Shown: one piece after another, positions 956 through 48,828 of the stretch
Position numbering within the stretch: position 1 is the first letter of the stretch
Layout: the number at the start of each line of letters is the position of its first letter
IMG/VR virus record: IMGVR_UViG_3300045988_154803
From: a virus
Taxonomy: Duplodnaviria > Heunggongvirae > Uroviricota > Caudoviricetes
Length of the DNA stretch: 48,828 bases
Direction: 5' to 3' (one strand)
Program-made: the position numbers and the translations under genes
The notes under the pieces: model-generated
The model's input: the letters and a program-made list of their open reading frames with translations, nothing else
Told to the model about the DNA's origin: nothing
Databases searched by the model: none

Positions 956-1031
956 TGGTGGCCCCTACCGGATTTGAACCGATGACCGTGCGATTATGAG
1001 TCGCCTGCTCTAACCACTGAGCTAAGGGGCC
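956..1031 (-). tRNA. tRNA with CAU anticodon, ileX/ileY-like (probable tRNA-Ile2 reading AUA after lysidine modification; tRNA-Met not excluded)
   Basis: 76-nt cloverleaf read by hand: acceptor GGCCCCU/AGGGGCC, D arm GCUC-AGUGGUU-AGAGC, anticodon loop CUCAUAA, T arm AUCGG-UUCAAAU-CCGGU, 3' CCA; 5' half matches E. coli ileX as recalled. Confidence 0.85.
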
Positions 1032-2852: not shown

Positions 2853-3193
2853 TCATAAAGCAACAAATTACGCGGTAATCGCTTAACGCAGTTTTACTAC
2901 GTTAAATGAAACACTACACCCAGTTACCATCTAAAACAAGGTTTTCTCATAAAAAAACCTTCAAATCGTGGTTAATCGATCAATAAAAAAACAATACTCA
3001 ACTTTTTGCCAAACGAACATCCCGGCCAGGACTTCCATAATATTCGCCGATATGCCACTGCTTAAGTTGAGTAATCTTCTCCAACTTAACTCCCATAGAG
3101 TCCAGTTTCTGCCATGTTTTCGGTTGTATGTGCTTCATTATCCGCTCTGAATATCTGAATACTGCTCGTAATCGCATGGCTTCTCACTACAGC

Positions 3194-3637
3194 TTATATA
3201 TGTTCACGACTGGACTTCCAGAATATCCACGCCAGATCAACATTCGGGTCCTGGTAATTCATCCCTTCGTTGGCACGAAGCAATAATGTTTCATGGTCTT
3301 TATCACCCGCATGAAACCTGACAAGTGCTTCGAACTTTTCGCGACCATCATCCGGCACTACCGGCTCTGGTTGGATAGTGACGTTGGCAAAGGCAGCACG
3401 CAAACCGGCCTTAATTTCCTCTACTTCATCAGCGCCTAGCGATGAATCTGACAATGCGTGATGGAATGCGTAAGCCATGTCGTCGTTTACTGCAACCGGC
3501 TCGACTTCCAGCGCTGCCAGAGCAATTCGTGCCAGTTCTTCCGCTTCTTCTGCTGGCAGTACAACGTTGCTACTAGGTCCGTATGTTTCGCGCCACTGCT
3601 TGATTGTCAGTAGTCGCTCTTTGGTAATAGTAATCAT
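3194..3637 (-). CDS. Hypothetical acidic protein
   Basis: 147-aa ORF in early operon; no motif recognised. Confidence 0.45.
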   Translation of the reverse strand: MITITKERLLTIKQWRETYGPSSNVVLPAEEAEELARIALAALEVEPVAVNDDMAYAFHHALSDSSLGADEVEEIKAGLRAAFANVTIQPEPVVPDDGREKFEALVRFHAGDKDHETLLLRANEGMNYQDPNVDLAWIFWKSSREHI

Positions 3638-4227
3638 GCCGCGTTTCCTTCTTTCTTATTAACAATTACACCGTCATATATTTCATTAAGGTGCCCTCTC
3701 AACTCCATGCGCCTTAATGCAGATAACATGTAATCGCATTCAACCTGCTTATTTCCAGTAAATGGCTTATCGTCAGGATTACCCCAACAGCAATTTCCCT
3801 TGGGCCACCCATGTACTTTCCGTACTCTTCCGTTAACAACGTGAAGTAATCCCCAGCCGGGAGGTAAATCCTCAACTGAAATAATTCCCGGCTCACTAAT
3901 AAAGAATCGCCAGTCGCCCATGCCAAGTGAGGGATTTTTACGGAAACGCTTTTTGCTATCTGCCAACAAGTCAGCACGAGAACACTTTGCCTCTATCAGG
4001 CATGATGCTGAATTTCTGAATCCCATAGCATCTGGCTGTTCTCCGGTACTGGTTACAGCTATAAAGCGGTCATGAAAGCAAACCTTGAACCCGTTGCGCT
4101 TAAGGAACTTGTACGCAATCTGACAGAGTTCGCGGTGTGTTAACGCCATCTCACTCTCCTTTAGTGCGCAGATAACAGTGGTTTTTCCAGCGGTTTTGCG
4201 CCGCGCTGGGCTTTTTGCAAAAACCAC
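3634..4227 (-). CDS. Hypothetical protein, possible PD-(D/E)XK nuclease-like
   Basis: 197 aa; PDAMGF ... LIEAK arrangement resembles PD-(D/E)xK core; several Cys near C-terminus. Confidence 0.35.
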   Translation of the reverse strand: MVFAKSPARRKTAGKTTVICALKESEMALTHRELCQIAYKFLKRNGFKVCFHDRFIAVTSTGEQPDAMGFRNSASCLIEAKCSRADLLADSKKRFRKNPSLGMGDWRFFISEPGIISVEDLPPGWGLLHVVNGRVRKVHGWPKGNCCWGNPDDKPFTGNKQVECDYMLSALRRMELRGHLNEIYDGVIVNKKEGNAA

Positions 4228-5928: not shown

Positions 5929-6996
5929 TCAGGCTTTCAATAGCGATTCTTTTAGATATCGGGCATCAGCCAGGGCGTTTGGAGTAATCTTGCGAACCCA
6001 TGCATTACGGGTTGGACTCCACTTAAAGGCGCGTGATTTAAGCAGCGAACGAATGTTTGCCTCTGGTTTGCCAGGGAAATAAAACAGGATGCGGTTATCC
6101 TCTGGATCTATCTCCATAGAAAAGCCGTCGTATTCTTCGCGCTGTGCTCCTGTTACAGACTTGACCGATTCAAGCTCCTTAATACGGCTCTGTAGTCGTT
6201 TGATTTCGGCGTTATTGTTGCTCAGTGCGTATGAAGGGAATCCGATGCGCCCACAGAAATCTCCGGCCAGTAACTCTTTGGCTTCGCTTTCTGTAAACCT
6301 GAGATCGATTAATGCAGAAAGCTGCTGTAATTGGTCTTTTTTGTATTTGCGAATGGCCTTATTTGCGGCCTTCATTTTGACGTGTGACTTCATGCAGCCT
6401 TGCAGCTTACGAAGCAACTTAAATAGCGCATCAGGATCATCAGACGAAATTCCATTACGACCAACACCTGCGGCTTTGCTCTCGTAGTGTGATGCTTTAC
6501 TTTCGCATTCAACAAACGCTTTTCTTAATAACGCATCAGCTTTAGACAAACGGCGGCGATGGCCTTTCGCGCTATAATGGTCAACTAAAATCGGCTGGCC
6601 TAACGGGATCACATCCAACAGGTCATGCGCTCGCTTATGCGCTACCGCACCTTCTTTTCTGGCTTTTTCTGCACGAGCAATATATCGGGCAAGACGCGCG
6701 TTCTGGCGTTCCTGATAGGTGTTTACGTAATCATCTCCGCGCTGCTGCTGTTCAAGCCATGCTTTGCGCAGATCTTCTGTTACGTCCACCAGCTCCGCAG
6801 GGATACAACCAGTTTGGGCTTCATAAGAGTAACCATCCTCATAGATGCGCCCATCGTCTTCAACAAAGAAAAAGGTTTCGTGCTCATCGCTTTTGACCAT
6901 ACGACCATTAACATGGCGTAATAGGTAGCCAGTATCAGTGCTTAACAGGCTGTTAGGGTTGTTGATCCAGTCAGAAATAATTTCTTGTTTATTCAT
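5929..6996 (-). CDS. DUF3560-like protein (unknown function; family seen on plasmids)
   Basis: 355 aa; motif GQPILVDHYSAKGHRRR recalled from DUF3560; first gene after leader cassette A. Confidence 0.5.
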   Translation of the reverse strand: MNKQEIISDWINNPNSLLSTDTGYLLRHVNGRMVKSDEHETFFFVEDDGRIYEDGYSYEAQTGCIPAELVDVTEDLRKAWLEQQQRGDDYVNTYQERQNARLARYIARAEKARKEGAVAHKRAHDLLDVIPLGQPILVDHYSAKGHRRRLSKADALLRKAFVECESKASHYESKAAGVGRNGISSDDPDALFKLLRKLQGCMKSHVKMKAANKAIRKYKKDQLQQLSALIDLRFTESEAKELLAGDFCGRIGFPSYALSNNNAEIKRLQSRIKELESVKSVTGAQREEYDGFSMEIDPEDNRILFYFPGKPEANIRSLLKSRAFKWSPTRNAWVRKITPNALADARYLKESLLKA

Positions 6997-7112
6997 CAGA
7001 TTTCTCCGGTTTAACCAGGGCGGGTATCGCTCGGTTTCGGGTATAACCTTAGGAAATTTTTTCCCACCTGTAAAGCGCTTTTTATATAAATCTATAATTA
7101 TATATTTATAGA
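6997..7112 (-). promoter_or_regulatory. Conserved promoter/5' leader cassette, copy A
   Basis: Near-identical to 16461-16580 and 48667-48785; ends at the start codon with GGAG RBS; contains TATAATTATA palindrome. Confidence 0.6.
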
Positions 7113-7165
7113 TTTTCGATGTTACCGATGTCTACACACCATCAAAACAGCTCAAAATGACACTT

Positions 7166-10842: not shown

Positions 10843-10948
10843 ATTATAGATTTATATAATTATATAAAACGCTTTTCATCAGCCAAAAAGTTGGTTATGC
10901 TTACCTCGTTCTATAAATATAGATTTATAGAATTATATAACCAAACAC
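10843..10948. promoter_or_regulatory. parA upstream region with AT palindromes (candidate centromere/operator)
   Basis: Perfect 16-bp palindrome TTATATAATTATATAA at 10843-10858 and a related repeat CTATAAATATAGATTTATAGAATTATATAA. Confidence 0.5.
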
Positions 10949-11617
10949 ATGGAGTCTCGACAAATGACTATCTCTGTAGGTATTTTCAACGGAAAAGGCG
11001 GCGTAACCAAATCAACAATTGCCCGTGCTTTAGCAGTTGCTTATGCAAAGGCTGGCTGGAATGTATGCCTGATCGATATGGATGTGCTTAACGGAACGGT
11101 AACGCGTTGGGTACAACGCAGAATGGCCAACAATATCGAACCAGCAATCGCGGCGCAGCCGTGCGGCACACCATCACAAGTCCAGAAAATCATCGAATCA
11201 GAAGTATACGACCTGGTTATCGTTGATGGCGGTGCCTACGCATCTGAATCAGTACCGAAGCTCTCTGAATTTCTGGATATGGTTATTTTGCCAACCAGAT
11301 TCTCTACCGATGACCTGGAAACCACCGTTAACACAGCTCACGGCATCGTTAAAAAGGGTGTACCAATCAAGAAAATTTGCATGGTGTTTTCCGGCGCGGC
11401 TGAAAACGAAGCTGACTATATTGAAGCCCAAGAGTACCTGGCTAATACGCCATACTTTGTTGTCGATAAGTACATTCCCCACAAGCCAGCTCTGAGCAAA
11501 GCTCAGGATAAGGGCTTAAGCCTCATTGAGTGCTCATACGTTGCGCCACGCAAAAAGGCAGACGACGTTATTCAGGGGATTATCAACCAGCTTGAGGCTC
11601 TGACTACTGCCGCGTAA
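10949..11617 (+). CDS. parA: ParA-family partition ATPase (small, type Ib-like); likely start at 10964
   Basis: Deviant Walker A GKGGVTKST; ~217 aa without N-terminal HTH. Confidence 0.85.
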   Translation: MESRQMTISVGIFNGKGGVTKSTIARALAVAYAKAGWNVCLIDMDVLNGTVTRWVQRRMANNIEPAIAAQPCGTPSQVQKIIESEVYDLVIVDGGAYASESVPKLSEFLDMVILPTRFSTDDLETTVNTAHGIVKKGVPIKKICMVFSGAAENEADYIEAQEYLANTPYFVVDKYIPHKPALSKAQDKGLSLIECSYVAPRKKADDVIQGIINQLEALTTAA

Positions 11618-11629
11618 TATATAATTATA
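11618..11629. repeat. TATATAATTATA palindrome between parA and downstream RHH gene
   Basis: Perfect 12-bp palindrome. Confidence 0.6.
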
Positions 11630-11660
11630 GTTTTATAGATTTATATAAGAGGGGATACAC

Positions 11661-12129: not shown

Positions 12130-12153
12130 ATAAAAAAGCCCCCGAAGGGGCCT
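12130..12153. terminator. Hairpin terminator (U-run on minus strand, A-run on plus)
   Basis: gcccccgaaggggc stem-loop flanked by A6 on plus strand. Confidence 0.5.
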
Positions 12154-12725
12154 AATCGCTACTTGCTGCTAATGTTTATCGTCACATTCAGAGCGTTATC
12201 AGTAATCTTCCAACCCTCCCCATGTGGCGTAAACAAAGCTCCAGTAACAACGATAAAAATACACATACAGTATTTTTTCATTGTATGGCCCTTACAGGCC
12301 GTTTCACGGCATCCCCACCGACGAAAACAACGCGAGAGCAAGCACGGCTGCTTGTGCTTGCATGTACGGCAACGGAGAATCCTCCCCTAAAGTCGGTGCC
12401 CGGGTGCGAATCGGCGGGAAGGTCCACAGGTATTTTACGATTATTTTAAGATTAGTAATAGGAAAGAAATTAAACGAAAAAACTCGTTTATTTTCACAAA
12501 ATCAGTAACCTACCCACAATCTGTGAGTTTGCAGGCACAACAAGAACCACAATTTTTTGAAGCATAATAGTGGACTATTATTACCTTTTGGGTAAAATTA
12601 ACTTGCTGCTTGTGCTTGCGTGGTTGTTTATACAACAACGTAATGCTGAAAGGACCGCGAATCCGATCAGCACGAAAGAACCGTCCTCAATAGGGCGGTT
12701 TTTTTGTTTCTGCCTACCAATAAAC

Positions 12726-12773: not shown

Positions 12774-12873
12774 TGCGCCATTGGTGGACACTTTCCGAGC
12801 CGTAGCAAAATCTACGGCCGGGATTGGAACCCCGATAATCATCATGGCGCATACCGCGTTAGCGGTTTTTTTA
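12774..12873 (+). ncRNA. Candidate small RNA (~100 nt) ending at intrinsic terminator
   Basis: Candidate promoter TTGTCT-N17-TATTGA; internal hairpin ccgtagcaaaatctacgg; terminator ccgc-gtta-gcgg + T7 at 12854-12872. Confidence 0.3.
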
Positions 12874-13037
12874 TGCGTAAAGCACTGCTACACCCAAATT
12901 ATGGTGGGGCGTGCGGGGGAGTCGTAAGACTCGCCGGATTCCATGGTGACCGGTAGTTCCAACCCTGTACGTCTCACCACCCAATGATTGGAACCAGACG
13001 GTGGTGAGTATCCTTAACCTTTAAGGGAACTATCACC

Positions 13038-16079: not shown

Positions 16080-16460
16080 TTACTTAACGAGGAATAAAAA
16101 TGGTTTATTGTTCGGCGGTGTAATCGGGGCTGGCTCGCTTTTGCTCATGCGATCAGTGTACCAGGCCAACTCCTTGTCAAAGTAAGCCTGATTAAAATAG
16201 GCCATGAATGTAGTTTCAAATCCATAACGACCGCTAATACGCAGCATCTGATTGCCGTTCTCTGTTTCCAGATATACCTGGGCACGTTCCTGATTCTCCT
16301 TCAGCCAGGTTAAAGCCTCATCGCATGAGGACACACGATACTCATCATCGTAGCAGTCATCGATGCGGCTTGAGGAAGAACGGCAAATCACGCCAACAGA
16401 ACCAGCCAGGATAGTTTGAATTTTAAGGAAAGCGTTTTTGCGGATTTTAATCATGCTCAT
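16080..16460 (-). CDS. Hypothetical protein (first gene after leader cassette B)
   Basis: 126-aa ORF starting exactly at end of conserved leader. Confidence 0.5.
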   Translation of the reverse strand: MSMIKIRKNAFLKIQTILAGSVGVICRSSSSRIDDCYDDEYRVSSCDEALTWLKENQERAQVYLETENGNQMLRISGRYGFETTFMAYFNQAYFDKELAWYTDRMSKSEPAPITPPNNKPFLFLVK

Positions 16461-16580
16461 CGGGTTATCTCCGGTTTAACCAGGGCGGGTATCGCTCGGT
16501 TTCGGGTATAACCTTAGGAATTTTTTTCCCACCTGTAAAGCACTTTTTATATAAATATATAATTATATAATTCTATGAGC
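16461..16580 (-). promoter_or_regulatory. Conserved promoter/5' leader cassette, copy B
   Basis: Near-identical to copies A and C; palindrome TATATAATTATATA at 16556-16569. Confidence 0.6.
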
Positions 16581-16582
16581 AC

Positions 16583-16607
16583 AAAAAAGCCCCTTTGCAA
16601 CAGGGGC
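16583..16607 (-). terminator. Intrinsic terminator after higA-like gene
   Basis: Minus strand gcccc-tgttgcaaa-ggggc followed by T6. Confidence 0.55.
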
Positions 16608-16623
16608 TTATCATTCGTTCTGA

Positions 16624-16923
16624 TCAGATGTTAAACGCTATTCGTTTTCCTGTGGGAAGCTCAACATCCAGGCTTAATTTGCCTCCCATAGCTTCAACGT
16701 AACGCTTTAATGTCGCCAGCTTTAAATCATTTCCGCGCTGCTCCAGCTTTGTTACTGCTGGCTGGCTTATACCCATCGCCTCAGCAACCTGTTTTTGTGA
16801 TAACTGGAGTTCTTCACGCATCATCTGCAAGCCGACCTCAAGAATCATCTCATCTGCCATTTCTTTAATTCGCGCCTGGCTTTCCGGTGAACGGCTGGCA
16901 ATCGCCTCATCTAATGTTCTCAT
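16624..16923 (-). CDS. higA: HigA-like XRE HTH antitoxin
   Basis: QKQVAEAMGISQPAVTKLE HTH; immediately downstream of and overlapping toxin gene. Confidence 0.65.
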   Translation of the reverse strand: MRTLDEAIASRSPESQARIKEMADEMILEVGLQMMREELQLSQKQVAEAMGISQPAVTKLEQRGNDLKLATLKRYVEAMGGKLSLDVELPTGKRIAFNI

Positions 16924-17276
16924 TACTTGCTCTCCAGTGTGTTCAGATGTGCTGCAAACTCATCCTCAGCTATACGCACCAGTTTTTCATAAAACCGCTT
17001 ATCGTTACTTTTGTCTCCTGCACAAAGAACGATGGCCCGGCGAATCGGATCGAACGCATAAAAGGCTCTTATCGGACGGCCAGAAAACTGAACGCGAAGC
17101 TCTTTCATATTTTTGTACCGAGAACCTTTTACGGTATCGGCATATGGCCTGGGTAACTCAGGTCCGTAAACCTGTAGCTTTTTCAAATCAGCCAAAACCT
17201 TTTCCTGAAGAGCGTCTTCTTGCTCATTTAGCCAGTCGTCAAATCGCTGGCTAAAAAGTACCGTCCACATGCTCAA
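16923..17276 (-). CDS. higB: HigB-like RelE/ParE-superfamily toxin (Gp49-like)
   Basis: 117 aa; toxin-first arrangement with HTH antitoxin; sequence pattern recalled from Gp49/HigB family. Confidence 0.65.
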   Translation of the reverse strand: MSMWTVLFSQRFDDWLNEQEDALQEKVLADLKKLQVYGPELPRPYADTVKGSRYKNMKELRVQFSGRPIRAFYAFDPIRRAIVLCAGDKSNDKRFYEKLVRIAEDEFAAHLNTLESK

Positions 17277-17325
17277 TCCTATAACCTGTAGTTTATATCA
17301 CTAACTATATAACCTGTGAGTTATA
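17277..17325. promoter_or_regulatory. Direct repeats TATAACCTGT upstream of higB (candidate autoregulatory operator)
   Basis: cctataacctgtag ... tatataacctgtgag. Confidence 0.45.
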
Positions 17326-17514
17326 ATTTCAAGAAAAACGGGGCTATTTAACATAATGGACGTTATCGGCACCACCGGATCACCGTTCATTGTCGGATCT
17401 AAAAAATCCGCGCAAAAGATCATGTTTTCCTGGGCGTTTTCCACTGTTTTTTATGTTGCTTATTTGTTAATGAAATCTCGTTTTCAGTTTCGCCTCATTT
17501 TCGACACGAAAGCC

Positions 17515-17805
17515 CTATTTTTGTGACTTTACTCCTGGCATATGGACTTCCCAGCGACGAATCCCCATAGCTGCGCAAAAATCAGCCACATAATTCAATC
17601 CCGCCCATTCGCGGATACCACCACGGGCTTTTTCAATGAAAACGGCAATCCCTTTTTTATTGAGAGCAAAAAGCCGCCAGCTTTTTGTCACTTCGTCCTG
17701 GGTAGCCACAACACAAGTGAAAGCTCCCATGCGATACAGGTCCAAGAACTCTTTGCGTGTTTTGCGTACAAGTTCCATAACAAACCTCATATTTGCATGT
17801 TTCAA
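17515..17805 (-). CDS. Hypothetical protein
   Basis: 96-aa ORF adjacent to origin region. Confidence 0.35.
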   Translation of the reverse strand: MKHANMRFVMELVRKTRKEFLDLYRMGAFTCVVATQDEVTKSWRLFALNKKGIAVFIEKARGGIREWAGLNYVADFCAAMGIRRWEVHMPGVKSQK

Positions 17806-18101
17806 ACATCTGTTTTGTTATCAATGAAGATTAACCCTAACCCAGCGAAGTAACACAGCAGCGCCCAGGCTGCATACGGAATGCTGGATCTGGATGTGGA
17901 CTCCTTTAACATCTGCCAGTTGCGAACATTGCGACTATCTTTTAAGCCTAGTTTTTTGGCCAACTGCGAGCCGCTCATTCCGGTCAGGCCAATGACTGCC
18001 CGAACTTCTCCACATGTAGGAGATTCCCATTCATCCGCTTTTTTTAAACAAGCCGGATTCAACATTTTTAAAACAGTATCTTTATCCATAACCATCTCCA
18101 T
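17802..18101 (-). CDS. Hypothetical protein with HTH-like segment and hydrophobic C-terminus
   Basis: VIGLTGMSGSQLAKKLGL; C-terminal AAWALLCYFAGLGLIFI. Confidence 0.35.
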   Translation of the reverse strand: MEMVMDKDTVLKMLNPACLKKADEWESPTCGEVRAVIGLTGMSGSQLAKKLGLKDSRNVRNWQMLKESTSRSSIPYAAWALLCYFAGLGLIFIDNKTDV

Positions 18102-22495: not shown

Positions 22496-24814
22496 TTAAA
22501 TACTCCCCGCGTTATACCACGTCCCATTAATGCAATACTGAATTGGCCTTGCCTGTGTTGTATCAATTAATTCATCACGGTTTCCGTTAACTGAACCCGT
22601 AACGACATAACCTGACCTGTCAGACCAGCCGGGGCCATTCCATGTCTGAACAGATGACAGACCGCCAAGGCGAATACCTGTAATAAACCTTGAGTTACAT
22701 TCTGCCTGCGTATATGCACCAACATCTCCCGCAGAGGGTTTGCGGGTTGTGGTGTAAAACTCTGACCAGTCAGCTTCAAAGCCATAACCATCACGCGCTG
22801 AACGATAAAAGATTCCGCCATTTCTGTAATTCACGCGGAACTGTGCAGCAGGGCAGCTCCCCGTATTCATATTGAAGTGGAGGATTAATGTCGATGCGCC
22901 ACCAATATTTGCGTTATAGACCCCGCTATTCCAGTTCCAGCCAACAGCTTTATCATTTCCGACAGTGCTTCCTGTTTGCCCTAAAGCAAATGCAGGTTGT
23001 TGATTTTTCGTGTTGTAGTCTCGTCGCCAGCCAGGAGCGTAAGCATCACCATGATTAATATAAGTGAATTGAGCGTTAGTAATTCCTCCACCGCTGGACG
23101 TGCTCGGCGTGGTAACGCGTATGGTCATTGCGCCGCGAGTGCCAATAACTTCCACCACAGCACCTGCAAGACAAATATTTCCGCAACCTGTATCTGTAAT
23201 GACCTTATTATTTGCATAAGCCCATGAGCCTTTGCACATCCAGTAAGGATGGTTAAATGCTCCCTGACTCTCCAGCCACGAAATAAATTGCGCGGTTGTC
23301 CAGACCTGACTATCGCCACCAATATCCAGCCATGCGCTATATGCGCGGCAGGCCCCAATATTTTTGGTGAAGGTATCTTTTCCCGGAATATCTGCGCCGT
23401 TCTGGTTTTTCTGTAATGCGCCAGAAGCCTGATTTACCGTTTCCTGTAAACCGAGGTATTCGATAACGGCAGCAACGGTCGATTTCGCAAGAATATCCCG
23501 CCCGACTTTTGTCAGGGTTGCCAGGCTGGCGACATCATTCCCCGTAAAATACGGAAACTTGTCTGCCGCAGTAGCAAGCCCGGCCAGCGCCGTCAGGGTG
23601 GCATCTTTCGGTTGCTTACCCGCAAGCGCGTTAGTCATGGTGGTCGCAAAATTCGGGTCGTTTCCCAGCGCCGCCGCTAACTCGTTCAGCGTATTCAGTG
23701 CGTCAGGTGACGAGTCCACGAGGGCAGCGATCGCAGCCATAACGAAAGCCGTGCTTGCGATTTGGGTATTATTCGTTCCCTGTCGCGCAGTTGGCGTTGT
23801 TGGCGTTCCGGTCAACGCAGGACTGTTTAAGGGCGCTTTCTTGTTCGTTTCATCCATTACCGCCTTGACCGCTTTCGATGTCGCGGCCAGTGTTTCAGAC
23901 GTGCTGTTGGTGGAACTACTGAGCTGAGTTATTCCCCTTACAGTCAGTGAAGCTACAGGCACATTTGTTATCTGCTCCCACGAATGCGTGTGATTGGACG
24001 GAGCCTTTCCGGCCGCAAGATCATACGCTGCCTTAACAGCCTTTGGTGTTGCTGCTAGCGTTTCAGACGTGCTGTTGGTGGCACTACTGAGCTGAACAAT
24101 CCCTTTTCGCGCTGTGGTAGCGTCCTGTGCGGTGTATTTGCCATTAGCCAGGTCATATGCTGCCTTAACAGCCTTAGGCGTCGCAGCAAGCGTTTCAGAC
24201 GAGCTATTGGTGGCGCTGCTAAGTTGAACAAAGCCTTTTGAGGTTAAAGTTGCATCAGGATGATTACGTGATTGTTCATGTTTCACAATGGCTTGCTTAA
24301 GCCGCTTTGCTGAAACAGCAAGGGAATCATCTGTACCGTCATCAATTTCTTGTTCATTGGCAAATCTTGCAACCCCAACAACAGTTTCGGTTGCGGGAGG
24401 ATTAATAAACTCAATATCACCAAATGTAATATTTTTAGTATCAAGAGTCTTGATTGCTATGTCACTTGATATTAAAGCAATAGTAGATGATGCTTTATTT
24501 ATTATTGCTTGTTCTTGCGAGTATACAGCAAACAACGTTCCCTTATTTGTATACAATCCTATTGTATGGACAACATACTCATCTTTACTATCATCCTTCG
24601 CCGTTACATGAATTGTATCAGGGGAAACAACTTTGCCACCTATTGTGGTAAGTCGTTTTATTTCGTTTGTTATATTTGTTTGTGAAGTTGACGTGACATA
24701 ATATCTACTACCTAAACCAACAGAAACAATCTCAACTTTATTTGTTCCTGTTTTGTTGGCATTAACCAGCTCCTGACGCCCGGCGTCAGTCATCGTAAAT
24801 AATAATTTACTCAC
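22496..24814 (-). CDS. Tail fibre protein (constant N-terminal ~450 aa outside, variable C-terminus inside invertible segment)
   Basis: 772 aa; repeated SSATNS(T/S)SETLAATPKAVKAAYD collar-like motifs; crossover site lies inside the ORF. Confidence 0.85.
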   Translation of the reverse strand: MSKLLFTMTDAGRQELVNANKTGTNKVEIVSVGLGSRYYVTSTSQTNITNEIKRLTTIGGKVVSPDTIHVTAKDDSKDEYVVHTIGLYTNKGTLFAVYSQEQAIINKASSTIALISSDIAIKTLDTKNITFGDIEFINPPATETVVGVARFANEQEIDDGTDDSLAVSAKRLKQAIVKHEQSRNHPDATLTSKGFVQLSSATNSSSETLAATPKAVKAAYDLANGKYTAQDATTARKGIVQLSSATNSTSETLAATPKAVKAAYDLAAGKAPSNHTHSWEQITNVPVASLTVRGITQLSSSTNSTSETLAATSKAVKAVMDETNKKAPLNSPALTGTPTTPTARQGTNNTQIASTAFVMAAIAALVDSSPDALNTLNELAAALGNDPNFATTMTNALAGKQPKDATLTALAGLATAADKFPYFTGNDVASLATLTKVGRDILAKSTVAAVIEYLGLQETVNQASGALQKNQNGADIPGKDTFTKNIGACRAYSAWLDIGGDSQVWTTAQFISWLESQGAFNHPYWMCKGSWAYANNKVITDTGCGNICLAGAVVEVIGTRGAMTIRVTTPSTSSGGGITNAQFTYINHGDAYAPGWRRDYNTKNQQPAFALGQTGSTVGNDKAVGWNWNSGVYNANIGGASTLILHFNMNTGSCPAAQFRVNYRNGGIFYRSARDGYGFEADWSEFYTTTRKPSAGDVGAYTQAECNSRFITGIRLGGLSSVQTWNGPGWSDRSGYVVTGSVNGNRDELIDTTQARPIQYCINGTWYNAGSI
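23441..23466. repeat. Right inversion crossover site (gix/hix-like)
   Basis: TTCCTGTAAACCGAGGTATTCGATAA, close to Mu gixL as recalled. Confidence 0.85.
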
Positions 24815-48400: not shown

Positions 48401-48666
48401 TCATCATCTCCTGCCGCACATACAACCTCACAAAAAACATCAGCGGAATGTTTCTTTTTGAATGAATGGCGCTCAAAACCGCACTCAATATCAGGCGCAA
48501 AAACATCCACCACATACGGTCTTTCAGAATGTTTGTTTTCCCAACGATAAACCGTAGTGACGTTGAAATGTTTTAACGCTTCACGGAACTCAACGCTGCC
48601 AGTCAGGTTTTTTGAGGTCAGGTATTGCAGGAGGTTTTTTACTACTTCACGGTCTTGTACTTTCAT
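48397..48666 (-). CDS. Hypothetical protein (first gene after leader cassette C)
   Basis: 89-aa ORF starting exactly at end of conserved leader. Confidence 0.45.
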   Translation of the reverse strand: MKVQDREVVKNLLQYLTSKNLTGSVEFREALKHFNVTTVYRWENKHSERPYVVDVFAPDIECGFERHSFKKKHSADVFCEVVCAAGDDE

Positions 48667-48785
48667 CGGGTTATCTCCGGTTTAACCAGGGCGGGTATCG
48701 CTCGGTTCCGGGTATAACCTTAGGAAATTTTTTCCCACCTGTAAAGTACTTTTTATATAAATATATAATTATATAATTCTATGAC
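48667..48785 (-). promoter_or_regulatory. Conserved promoter/5' leader cassette, copy C
   Basis: Near-identical to copies A and B; palindrome TATATAATTATATA at 48762-48775. Confidence 0.6.
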
Positions 48786-48828
48786 ACTTGCCAGAGAGCA
48801 TCATGCAATTGGATACCTCCATTGCACT
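48771..48828. repeat. Terminal overlap identical to 52-109
   Basis: Direct comparison. Confidence 0.9.

Follow-up and report, generated by a model that had tools for sequence, protein, structure and literature searches.

The 48,828-nt stretch of DNA analysed here (the window) very probably carries a type II toxin-antitoxin (TA) operon that would stabilise a phage-plasmid by post-segregational killing. Within the RelE/ParE superfamily, the operon belongs to the Gp49 (PF05973) branch, and characterised members of this branch go by the names HigBA or Tad-Ata. Reading of the sequence places every feature of the operon on the minus strand, between 16579 and 17332. An initial annotation had described the module without stating its strand; the features that it named are all present in the sequence, and the strand is minus. 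In the direction of transcription, the features are as follows:

17327..17332, minus strand: -35 hexamer TTGAAA of the higBA promoter (promoter scan)
17308..17325, no strand assigned: putative operator dyad O1, sense TATAACTCACAGGTTATA, which fills the promoter spacer and touches the -10 hexamer
17304..17309, minus strand: -10 hexamer TATAGT of the higBA promoter (promoter scan)
17280..17297, no strand assigned: putative operator dyad O2, sense TATAAACTACAGGTTATA, between the -10 hexamer and the Shine-Dalgarno sequence, over the expected transcript start
17277..17280, minus strand: Shine-Dalgarno sequence AGGA of the toxin gene, 6 nt 5' of the ATG (direct reading)
16923..17270, minus strand: higB-like toxin gene, 115 aa and stop; Gp49/PF05973, predicted RelE-like fold
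16624..16923, minus strand: higA-like antitoxin gene, 99 aa and stop; XRE helix-turn-helix (HTH) at residues 32-83
16579..16609, minus strand: intrinsic terminator of the TA operon, with an 8-bp stem, a 7-nt loop and a T tract

The operon had been described as a toxin-first pair of the RelE/ParE type with overlapping stop and start codons, and indeed the two genes overlap by one base (TAATG), the ATG of the antitoxin gene sharing its A with the TAA of the toxin gene. The toxin had been given a length of 117 aa. An open reading frame of that length exists (17276..16923, from a TTG six bases 5' of the ATG), but the TTG start was dropped in favour of the ATG at 17270, which gives 115 aa, because of the spacing to the Shine-Dalgarno sequence, the conserved MW N-terminus and the 348-nt annotation in RefSeq. 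The MW N-terminus was found at the position of this ATG in most of the toxin homologues printed. At the other end of the operon, a GC-rich 8-bp stem (AAGCCCCT-loop-AGGGGCTT) followed by TTTTTGTG is located at 16609..16587 on the minus strand, 14 nt 3' of the antitoxin stop codon. The 55-nt terminator region folds with -15.5 kcal/mol, and the stem is present in the minimum free energy and the centroid structures alike. Since the T tail is found on the minus strand only, with none on the plus strand, the hairpin terminates the TA operon. The initial annotation had listed a terminator at 16583-16607 as a separator from a leader cassette B; the hairpin is there, but it is the terminator of the TA operon itself and not just a spacer before that cassette.

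Profile support for the toxin, which had been named as a check, was found in Pfam. The protein matched Gp49 (PF05973) with 81.3 bits (cut-off, 23.9; E = 5.4e-23) over profile positions 1-89 of 90, and no other Pfam family was reported for it at E ≤ 0.01. In PHROGs, it matched phrog_3445, "toxin", with 2e-33; phrog_2339 was also matched in the search with the TA pair (6e-31), and the NCBIfam matches for the pair were all below the cut-offs. A word-indexed search gave 1,062 relatives of the toxin, with PF05973 present in all 120 that were listed, and a profile search of 1.84 billion cluster representatives gave 3,249 at E ≤ 0.001. According to a 2025 review, Gp49 is grouped with Tad, HigB1 and HigB3, and Gp49 toxins are ribosome-dependent mRNA degraders encoded in the order toxin, then antitoxin. 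HigB/HigA-like, as the pair had been called, is correct if it refers to HigBA of the Gp49/PF05973 branch (Tad, Mtb HigB1-3, A. baumannii HigB and IncC HigB) but not if it refers to the canonical Rts1/E. coli HigB: the toxin matched neither of the canonical HigB profiles, PF05015 and PF09907 (Pfam, E ≤ 0.01), nor, by sequence, RelE PF06296 or the solved chains of V. cholerae HigB2. An equation of Gp49 with V. cholerae HigB2 was considered and is wrong, the 2025 review placing V. cholerae-type HigB2 in PF06296.

When the PDB was searched by sequence, the toxin alone and profiles built from 25 and from 47 sequences all gave chance hits only (miniGq, alpha-galactosidase). Therefore, the fold was tested by way of a predicted model, and, as no solved structure matched by sequence, candidate catalytic residues were taken from conservation only. 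The AlphaFold2 model (pLDDT, 83.6) was matched by Foldseek with a probability of 1.00 to RelE (2khe, 4fxe), V. cholerae HigB2 (8a0x, 5ja8) and Mtb HigB1 (7awk), with TM scores of about 0.6-0.68 to the best matches (0.68 for Mtb HigB1, 7awk). The toxin is thus predicted to have a RelE-like/BECR fold. In the 47-sequence alignment, Y94 is invariant and E57, L58, R59, R68, D74, R77 and K87 are nearly so. G64, the residue needed for toxicity of IncC HigB, is conserved in the window toxin. Since RelE and ParE share the same fold and the RefSeq name says only "RelE/ParE family toxin", the protein could be a ParE-like poison of DNA gyrase and not an mRNA endonuclease. We consider this highly improbable: Pfam gives Gp49 and, at E ≤ 0.01, no ParE (PF05016), characterised Gp49 toxins are listed as degraders of mRNA, with IncC HigB and A. 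baumannii HigB2 shown to be RNases, and RelE and HigB head the structural matches, a single YoeB/ParE entry appearing far down the Foldseek list. By homology, the 115-aa protein probably acts as an mRNA endonuclease that depends on the ribosome. In one Y. pestis database entry, toxin residues 74-83 read FESDSSGYRS, where all other homologues have FDPIRRAIVL; this stretch resembles the outcome of two frameshifts close together or of an error in sequencing, and the loci that we read on the Y. pestis plasmid pPCP1 encode the normal sequence.

The antitoxin matched HTH_3 with 40.1 bits (cut-off, 23; E = 3.9e-10), with the XRE HTH at residues 32-83, and its best matches in the PDB were Mtb HigA3 (6lty, 4.8e-5) and Mtb HigA2 (7ewc, 2.5e-4). 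A homologue of the antitoxin gene is located directly 3' of the toxin gene, on the same strand, in all 80 related loci. Of the codons that differ from a Klebsiella homologue, 53 are synonymous and 12 non-synonymous in the toxin gene, and 44 and 11, respectively, in the antitoxin gene, a pattern that points to purifying selection on both genes.

The operon is preceded by a predicted sigma-70-type promoter, TTGAAA-17-TATAGT (17332..17304, minus strand), that matches the consensus at 10 of 12 positions. The promoter scan alone was not significant (2 sites versus 4.9 expected in the region); many of the homologous loci have a TTGAAA/TTGACA-like hexamer in the equivalent position, 5' of their first dyad. 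The 48.8-kb window contains exactly two copies of the sequence TATAACCTGT, located 28 bp apart at 17280-17289 and 17308-17317. The initial annotation had taken these copies, written as TATAACCTGT(A/G)AG, for a tandem direct-repeat operator. Both copies are present, but the consensus was slightly off, since a one-base indel separates copy 1, TATAACCTGTAGT, from copy 2, TATAACCTGTGAG. Moreover, each copy of TATAACCTGT forms the left half of an imperfect palindrome of 18 bp, and the direct repeat is better described as a pair of dyad-symmetric sites, TATAACCTGTAGTTTATA at 17280-17297 and TATAACCTGTGAGTTATA at 17308-17325, whose starts are 28 bp apart. Neither dyad is perfect, each having 6 of its 7 outer pairs. 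O1 ends in the two bases with which the -10 hexamer begins, and O2 starts 7 nt 3' of the -10 hexamer and ends within the Shine-Dalgarno sequence; proteins occupying O1 and O2 would exclude RNA polymerase. O1 lies 55 nt 5' of the ATG, a distance that is 53-60 nt for the first dyad in most of the homologues printed.

Conservation of the dyads was analysed in 80 loci with relatives of the toxin (listed at 54-98% identity, from many genera) and the window, 81 in total. A dyad was defined as ATA-N10-TAT with complementary inner bases within 160 nt around the toxin start. At least one dyad was found upstream in 74 of the 81 operons and at least two in 43, with a spacing of successive dyads of 24-29 bp in 34 of 44 pairs. 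By contrast, 80 coding controls of 640 nt each contained no dyad of the ATA-N10-TAT type, and only 2.7% of shuffled upstream regions contained one. The higBA dyads are not due to chance, since most of the homologous operons have them and the controls scarcely do. The inner triplets of the half-sites vary by lineage and in both arms together (AGC/GCT, 29; AAC/GTT, 10; AGT/ACT, 6; GAT/ATC, 3), and such a symmetric change is the pattern expected of a site read by a symmetric dimer. Taken from sequence comparison, this conservation is good evidence that the higBA dyads are functional, as putative HigA binding sites, and it indicates an operator layout with paired dyads across the Gp49-type HigBA family. 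No operator was defined for these modules in the studies of the two closest characterised systems (PMC8265657, PMC5906591).

One of these systems is the higBA operon of IncC plasmids, an addiction module whose toxin arrests growth of E. coli and is counteracted by the antitoxin; IncC HigB cleaves mRNA in a ribosome-dependent manner, and the exchange G64V abolishes toxicity (Qi, Kamruzzaman & Iredell 2021, PMC8265657). The window toxin shares 55% identity with IncC HigB, and the window antitoxin shares 46% with IncC HigA. Both operons are plasmid borne and toxin-first, both encode a Gp49-type toxin (116 aa in IncC) and an XRE antitoxin (100 aa in IncC), and both have TATA-type dyads in the promoter. 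However, the IncC dyads, TATAGGTTTGAATCTATA and TATAGGATTGCACCTATA, overlap and are about 14 bp apart (28 bp in the window), their half-sites differ from those of the window operon, the IncC genes are separated by a gap of 4 nt whereas those of the window overlap, and the replicon is a conjugative plasmid and not a phage-plasmid. For IncC higBA, a non-canonical SOS box, GATTGCACCTATATTAAGTA, was proposed (PMC8265657). In the IncC plasmid pVC211 (L004, 1027-1100, upstream of higB), this box overlaps the second of the dyads TATAGGTTTGAATCTATA/TATAGGATTGCACCTATA, which resemble the family-wide HigA operator pattern, and therefore part of the box may be a HigA site.

The other system is the HigBA pair of A. 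baumannii plasmids, with Gp49 toxin and XRE antitoxin as in the window and identities of 55% (toxin) and 62% (antitoxin). The HigBA2Ab toxin of pAB120 is an RNase and the module stabilises plasmids; HigA represses the promoter of the module, and HigB serves as corepressor (Armalyte et al. 2018, PMC5906591). The A. baumannii and IncC pairs are 51%/51% identical, the same figure as given for IncC versus pAB120 HigBA in PMC8265657. The A. baumannii locus that we compared is of the pAB120 type and may be identical to pAB120 HigBA; it has a single dyad, TATAGACTATAATCTATA, and an 8-nt overlap of the genes, whereas the window has two dyads and an overlap of one base.

More distant are HigBA2 (Rv2022c-Rv2021c) and HigBA3 (Rv3182-Rv3183) of Mtb, the toxins of which are cited in the literature as Gp49 relatives of the A. 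baumannii toxin. HigA2 and HigA3 align with the window antitoxin over the HTH and the C-terminal strand region, but the relationship is distant (E = 2.5e-4 and 5e-5, respectively) and the Mtb modules are chromosomal. For the toxins of this subgroup, the PDB searches gave no solved structure. The canonical HigBA modules (Rts1/E. coli HigB; V. cholerae HigB2) share with the window operon the reverse gene order, the RelE-like fold, an XRE antitoxin and an operator, putative in the window, that overlaps the promoter, and V. cholerae HigB2 and E. coli/Shigella HigB were also matched by the toxin model in Foldseek. However, there was no match to them by sequence profile, and the structural alignments gave identities of 8-18% (16-18% for V. 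cholerae HigB2). The window toxin would work like canonical HigB but is not a member of that group. A functional analogue is Phd-Doc of the phage-plasmid P1, a plasmid prophage that has partition functions and carries Phd-Doc as its type II TA module; its proteins are unrelated to those of the window, its gene order is opposite and its toxin has the mechanism of a Fic-fold kinase.

A different function of the pair, as a small Cro/CI-like regulator with an accessory protein that is not toxic and controls genes of the phage-plasmid, is extremely unlikely. The antitoxin is indeed a generic XRE HTH protein that matches many phage repressor families, and a relaxed operator pattern detects AT-rich dyads at other promoters of the window: 14 sites in the whole window, including O1 and O2, compared to 2.2 expected from shuffles that do not model local AT-richness. 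However, the C/G specificity positions are missing from the additional dyads, each of which has two mismatches; these dyads were rejected as further HigA targets, do not speak for cross-regulation and are probably binding sites of other regulators. Moreover, toxin and antitoxin genes are strictly paired in 80/80 loci, many of them on long chromosomal contigs and from many genera, and the window pair is 46-62% identical to pairs with proven killing and rescue. From these homologues, 46-62% identical, we infer that the window module would likewise be toxic, be rescued by its antitoxin and stabilise its plasmid.

As a TA operon, the module would work as follows. The 99-aa antitoxin probably neutralises the toxin by direct binding, for which its N-terminal approximately 30 residues would be used, judging from their position. 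A dimer of the antitoxin probably binds both 18-bp dyads, O1 at the spacer and -10 hexamer and O2 at the transcript start and Shine-Dalgarno sequence, so that HigA alone would repress the operon, and the HigB-HigA complex would do so more strongly. On loss of the phage-plasmid, fresh antitoxin would no longer make up for the decay of this labile protein, and the toxin would arrest growth of the cell. In this way, the module would help the lineage to retain the 48.7-kb plasmid prophage, together with ParA partition.

The replicon fits such a role. The window is a circular element with an overlap of about 110 bases (52-109 = 48771-48828) and a replicon size of 48.7 kb, and it is nearly identical to E. 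coli plasmids of ~48 kb (p48 of strain 1428) and to the Yersinia phages vB_YpM_39/41/44. An annotated relative encodes terminase, portal, capsid, tail tube, tape measure, baseplate and holins, has tail-fibre genes with an invertase, and encodes ParA and ParB-domain proteins; no integrase is listed in its annotation. With phage structural genes, ParA/ParB and no listed integrase, the replicon is therefore a phage-plasmid. About 2% of complete E. coli genomes contain a member of this family, among them a record named ATCC 25922. The TA cassette was found in 100 of 5,426 complete E. coli genomes, and 103 of its 104 places are on plasmids, which bears out the extrachromosomal setting put forward in the initial annotation. 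Small non-phage plasmids carry it as well, namely, pPCP1 (9.6 kb) and an E. coli plasmid of 6.7 kb, and many of the loci with toxin homologues are long chromosomal contigs from many genera. The 94,204-bp record NZ_CP032086.1 (E. coli ATCC 25922) has the cassette twice and is about double the phage-plasmid in length, perhaps as a dimer or through duplication during assembly.

Alternatively, the pair could mainly cause abortive infection that guards the lysogen against other phages, with plasmid stabilisation as a side effect. Phage-plasmids often carry defence genes, RelE/ParE-superfamily toxins within defence systems are described in the review, and a preprint reports toxin-antitoxin-chaperone systems that abort phage infection. 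The one direct hint is that the toxin weakly matches the C-terminal domain of the PADLOC candidate defence protein NsnC (E = 6e-7). However, the operon has no defence-island context and is adjoined by small phage ORFs without known function, plasmid stabilisation was demonstrated for its closest characterised homologues, and the cassette is found on small non-phage plasmids too, with the E. coli copies almost exclusively plasmid borne. A main role in phage defence is unlikely, and we favour plasmid stabilisation, though the sequence data are compatible with both roles.

Exact matches to both proteins are present in RefSeq (WP_000269912.1, a RelE/ParE-family toxin, and WP_001259435.1, an HTH protein), and the toxin is labelled higB2 in the Yersinia phage records, which is an annotation name only. 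Given the RefSeq annotation and its well-characterised kind, the module is already known; the cassette is real but ordinary. It would help to explain how the family of ~48-kb plasmid prophages persists without integration and adds little beyond a correct annotation. For TA specialists, the points of interest are the conserved paired-dyad layout with symmetric half-sites and the cassette beside pla on pPCP1.

On pPCP1 of Y. pestis, the cassette is located beside pla and is 95.2% identical over 726 bp, with 2 residues different in the toxin and 6 in the antitoxin. Window positions 16634-17359 (promoter-higB-higA) align to 3001-3725 of the pPCP1 locus (L003), and the 120 nt upstream of the cassette (window 17337-17456) are 79% identical to 1604-1723 of the same locus, which lie roughly 140-260 nt 5' of pla. 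In window coordinates, the two alignments share 23 nt; since they are contiguous in the window, pla sits between their counterparts on pPCP1, with a short ATTTAaCATAAc-like junction at both ends. The phages vB_YpM_39/41/44, which belong to the same phage-plasmid family, were isolated on a Y. pestis strain. If that host strain carries pPCP1, the two replicons might share antitoxin and operators, cancel each other's post-segregational killing (anti-addiction) and cross-repress each other's promoters. We regard this as a rather doubtful possibility; if true, the phage-plasmid could enter or leave Y. pestis without penalty, or could loosen the hold of the cell on the pla virulence plasmid. A literature search gave nothing on this module, its >90% identical relatives or the pPCP1 copy (YPPCP1.08c/09c), and nothing on this TA module was found in the literature on the Yersinia phages vB_YpM_39/41/44. 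The cassette is also carried by NZ_JH976447.1, a 9,631-bp record with a Gram-positive label ("Amphibacillus jilinensis Y1 Scaffold15"). Over the 122 nt read, the region upstream of this copy is the same as in L007, a Y. pestis locus, and the record is close in length to pPCP1 (9,610 bp); the scaffold is probably a contamination of that assembly.

Other features were observed around the operon and elsewhere in the window. Immediately upstream of the TA operon lies a pair of small overlapping genes, 17802-18101 and 17515-17805, both on the minus strand. The former has a weak HTH match below the threshold (mobile mystery protein A, E = 1e-4) and matches phrog_8351; the latter matches phrog_4595. 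Three copies of a ~122-nt cassette, 87-100% identical, are located at 6992-7113, 16457-16578 and 48663-48784. On the minus strand, each consists of an AT-rich dyad region, a promoter-like stretch (TTTACA...TAAGGT) and a conserved leader ending in GGAGA..ATG, and each copy leads into a different ORF. The copy at 16457-16578, directly 3' of the TA terminator, is the leader cassette B of the initial annotation. The AT-rich dyads, TATAA(A/T)-N-(A/T)TTATA, are found at 10912-10929, 11620-11637, 7085-7110, 16550-16567, 48756-48773 and 1165-1182. Two of them flank the map position of p48 parA (about 10962-11615), and those at 7085-7110, 16550-16567 and 48756-48773 fall within the repeated ~122-nt cassettes.

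Rfam matches above the gathering score were ryfA RNA (12132-12427, minus strand, 138.5 bits), isrK (12799-12872, plus strand, 72.5 bits), C4 antisense RNA (12897-12984, plus strand, 84.3 bits) and a tRNA (959-1031, minus strand, 67 bits). C4 is the antisense RNA of the immI immunity region of P1/P7. The Rha-family gene of p48 maps to about 13.7-14.4 kb of the window. Finally, a 93-nt unit is present three times at 23847-24239, in diverged form (72-100% identity) and with spacings of 168 and 132 nt; this arrangement looks like an internal repeat within a coding region.
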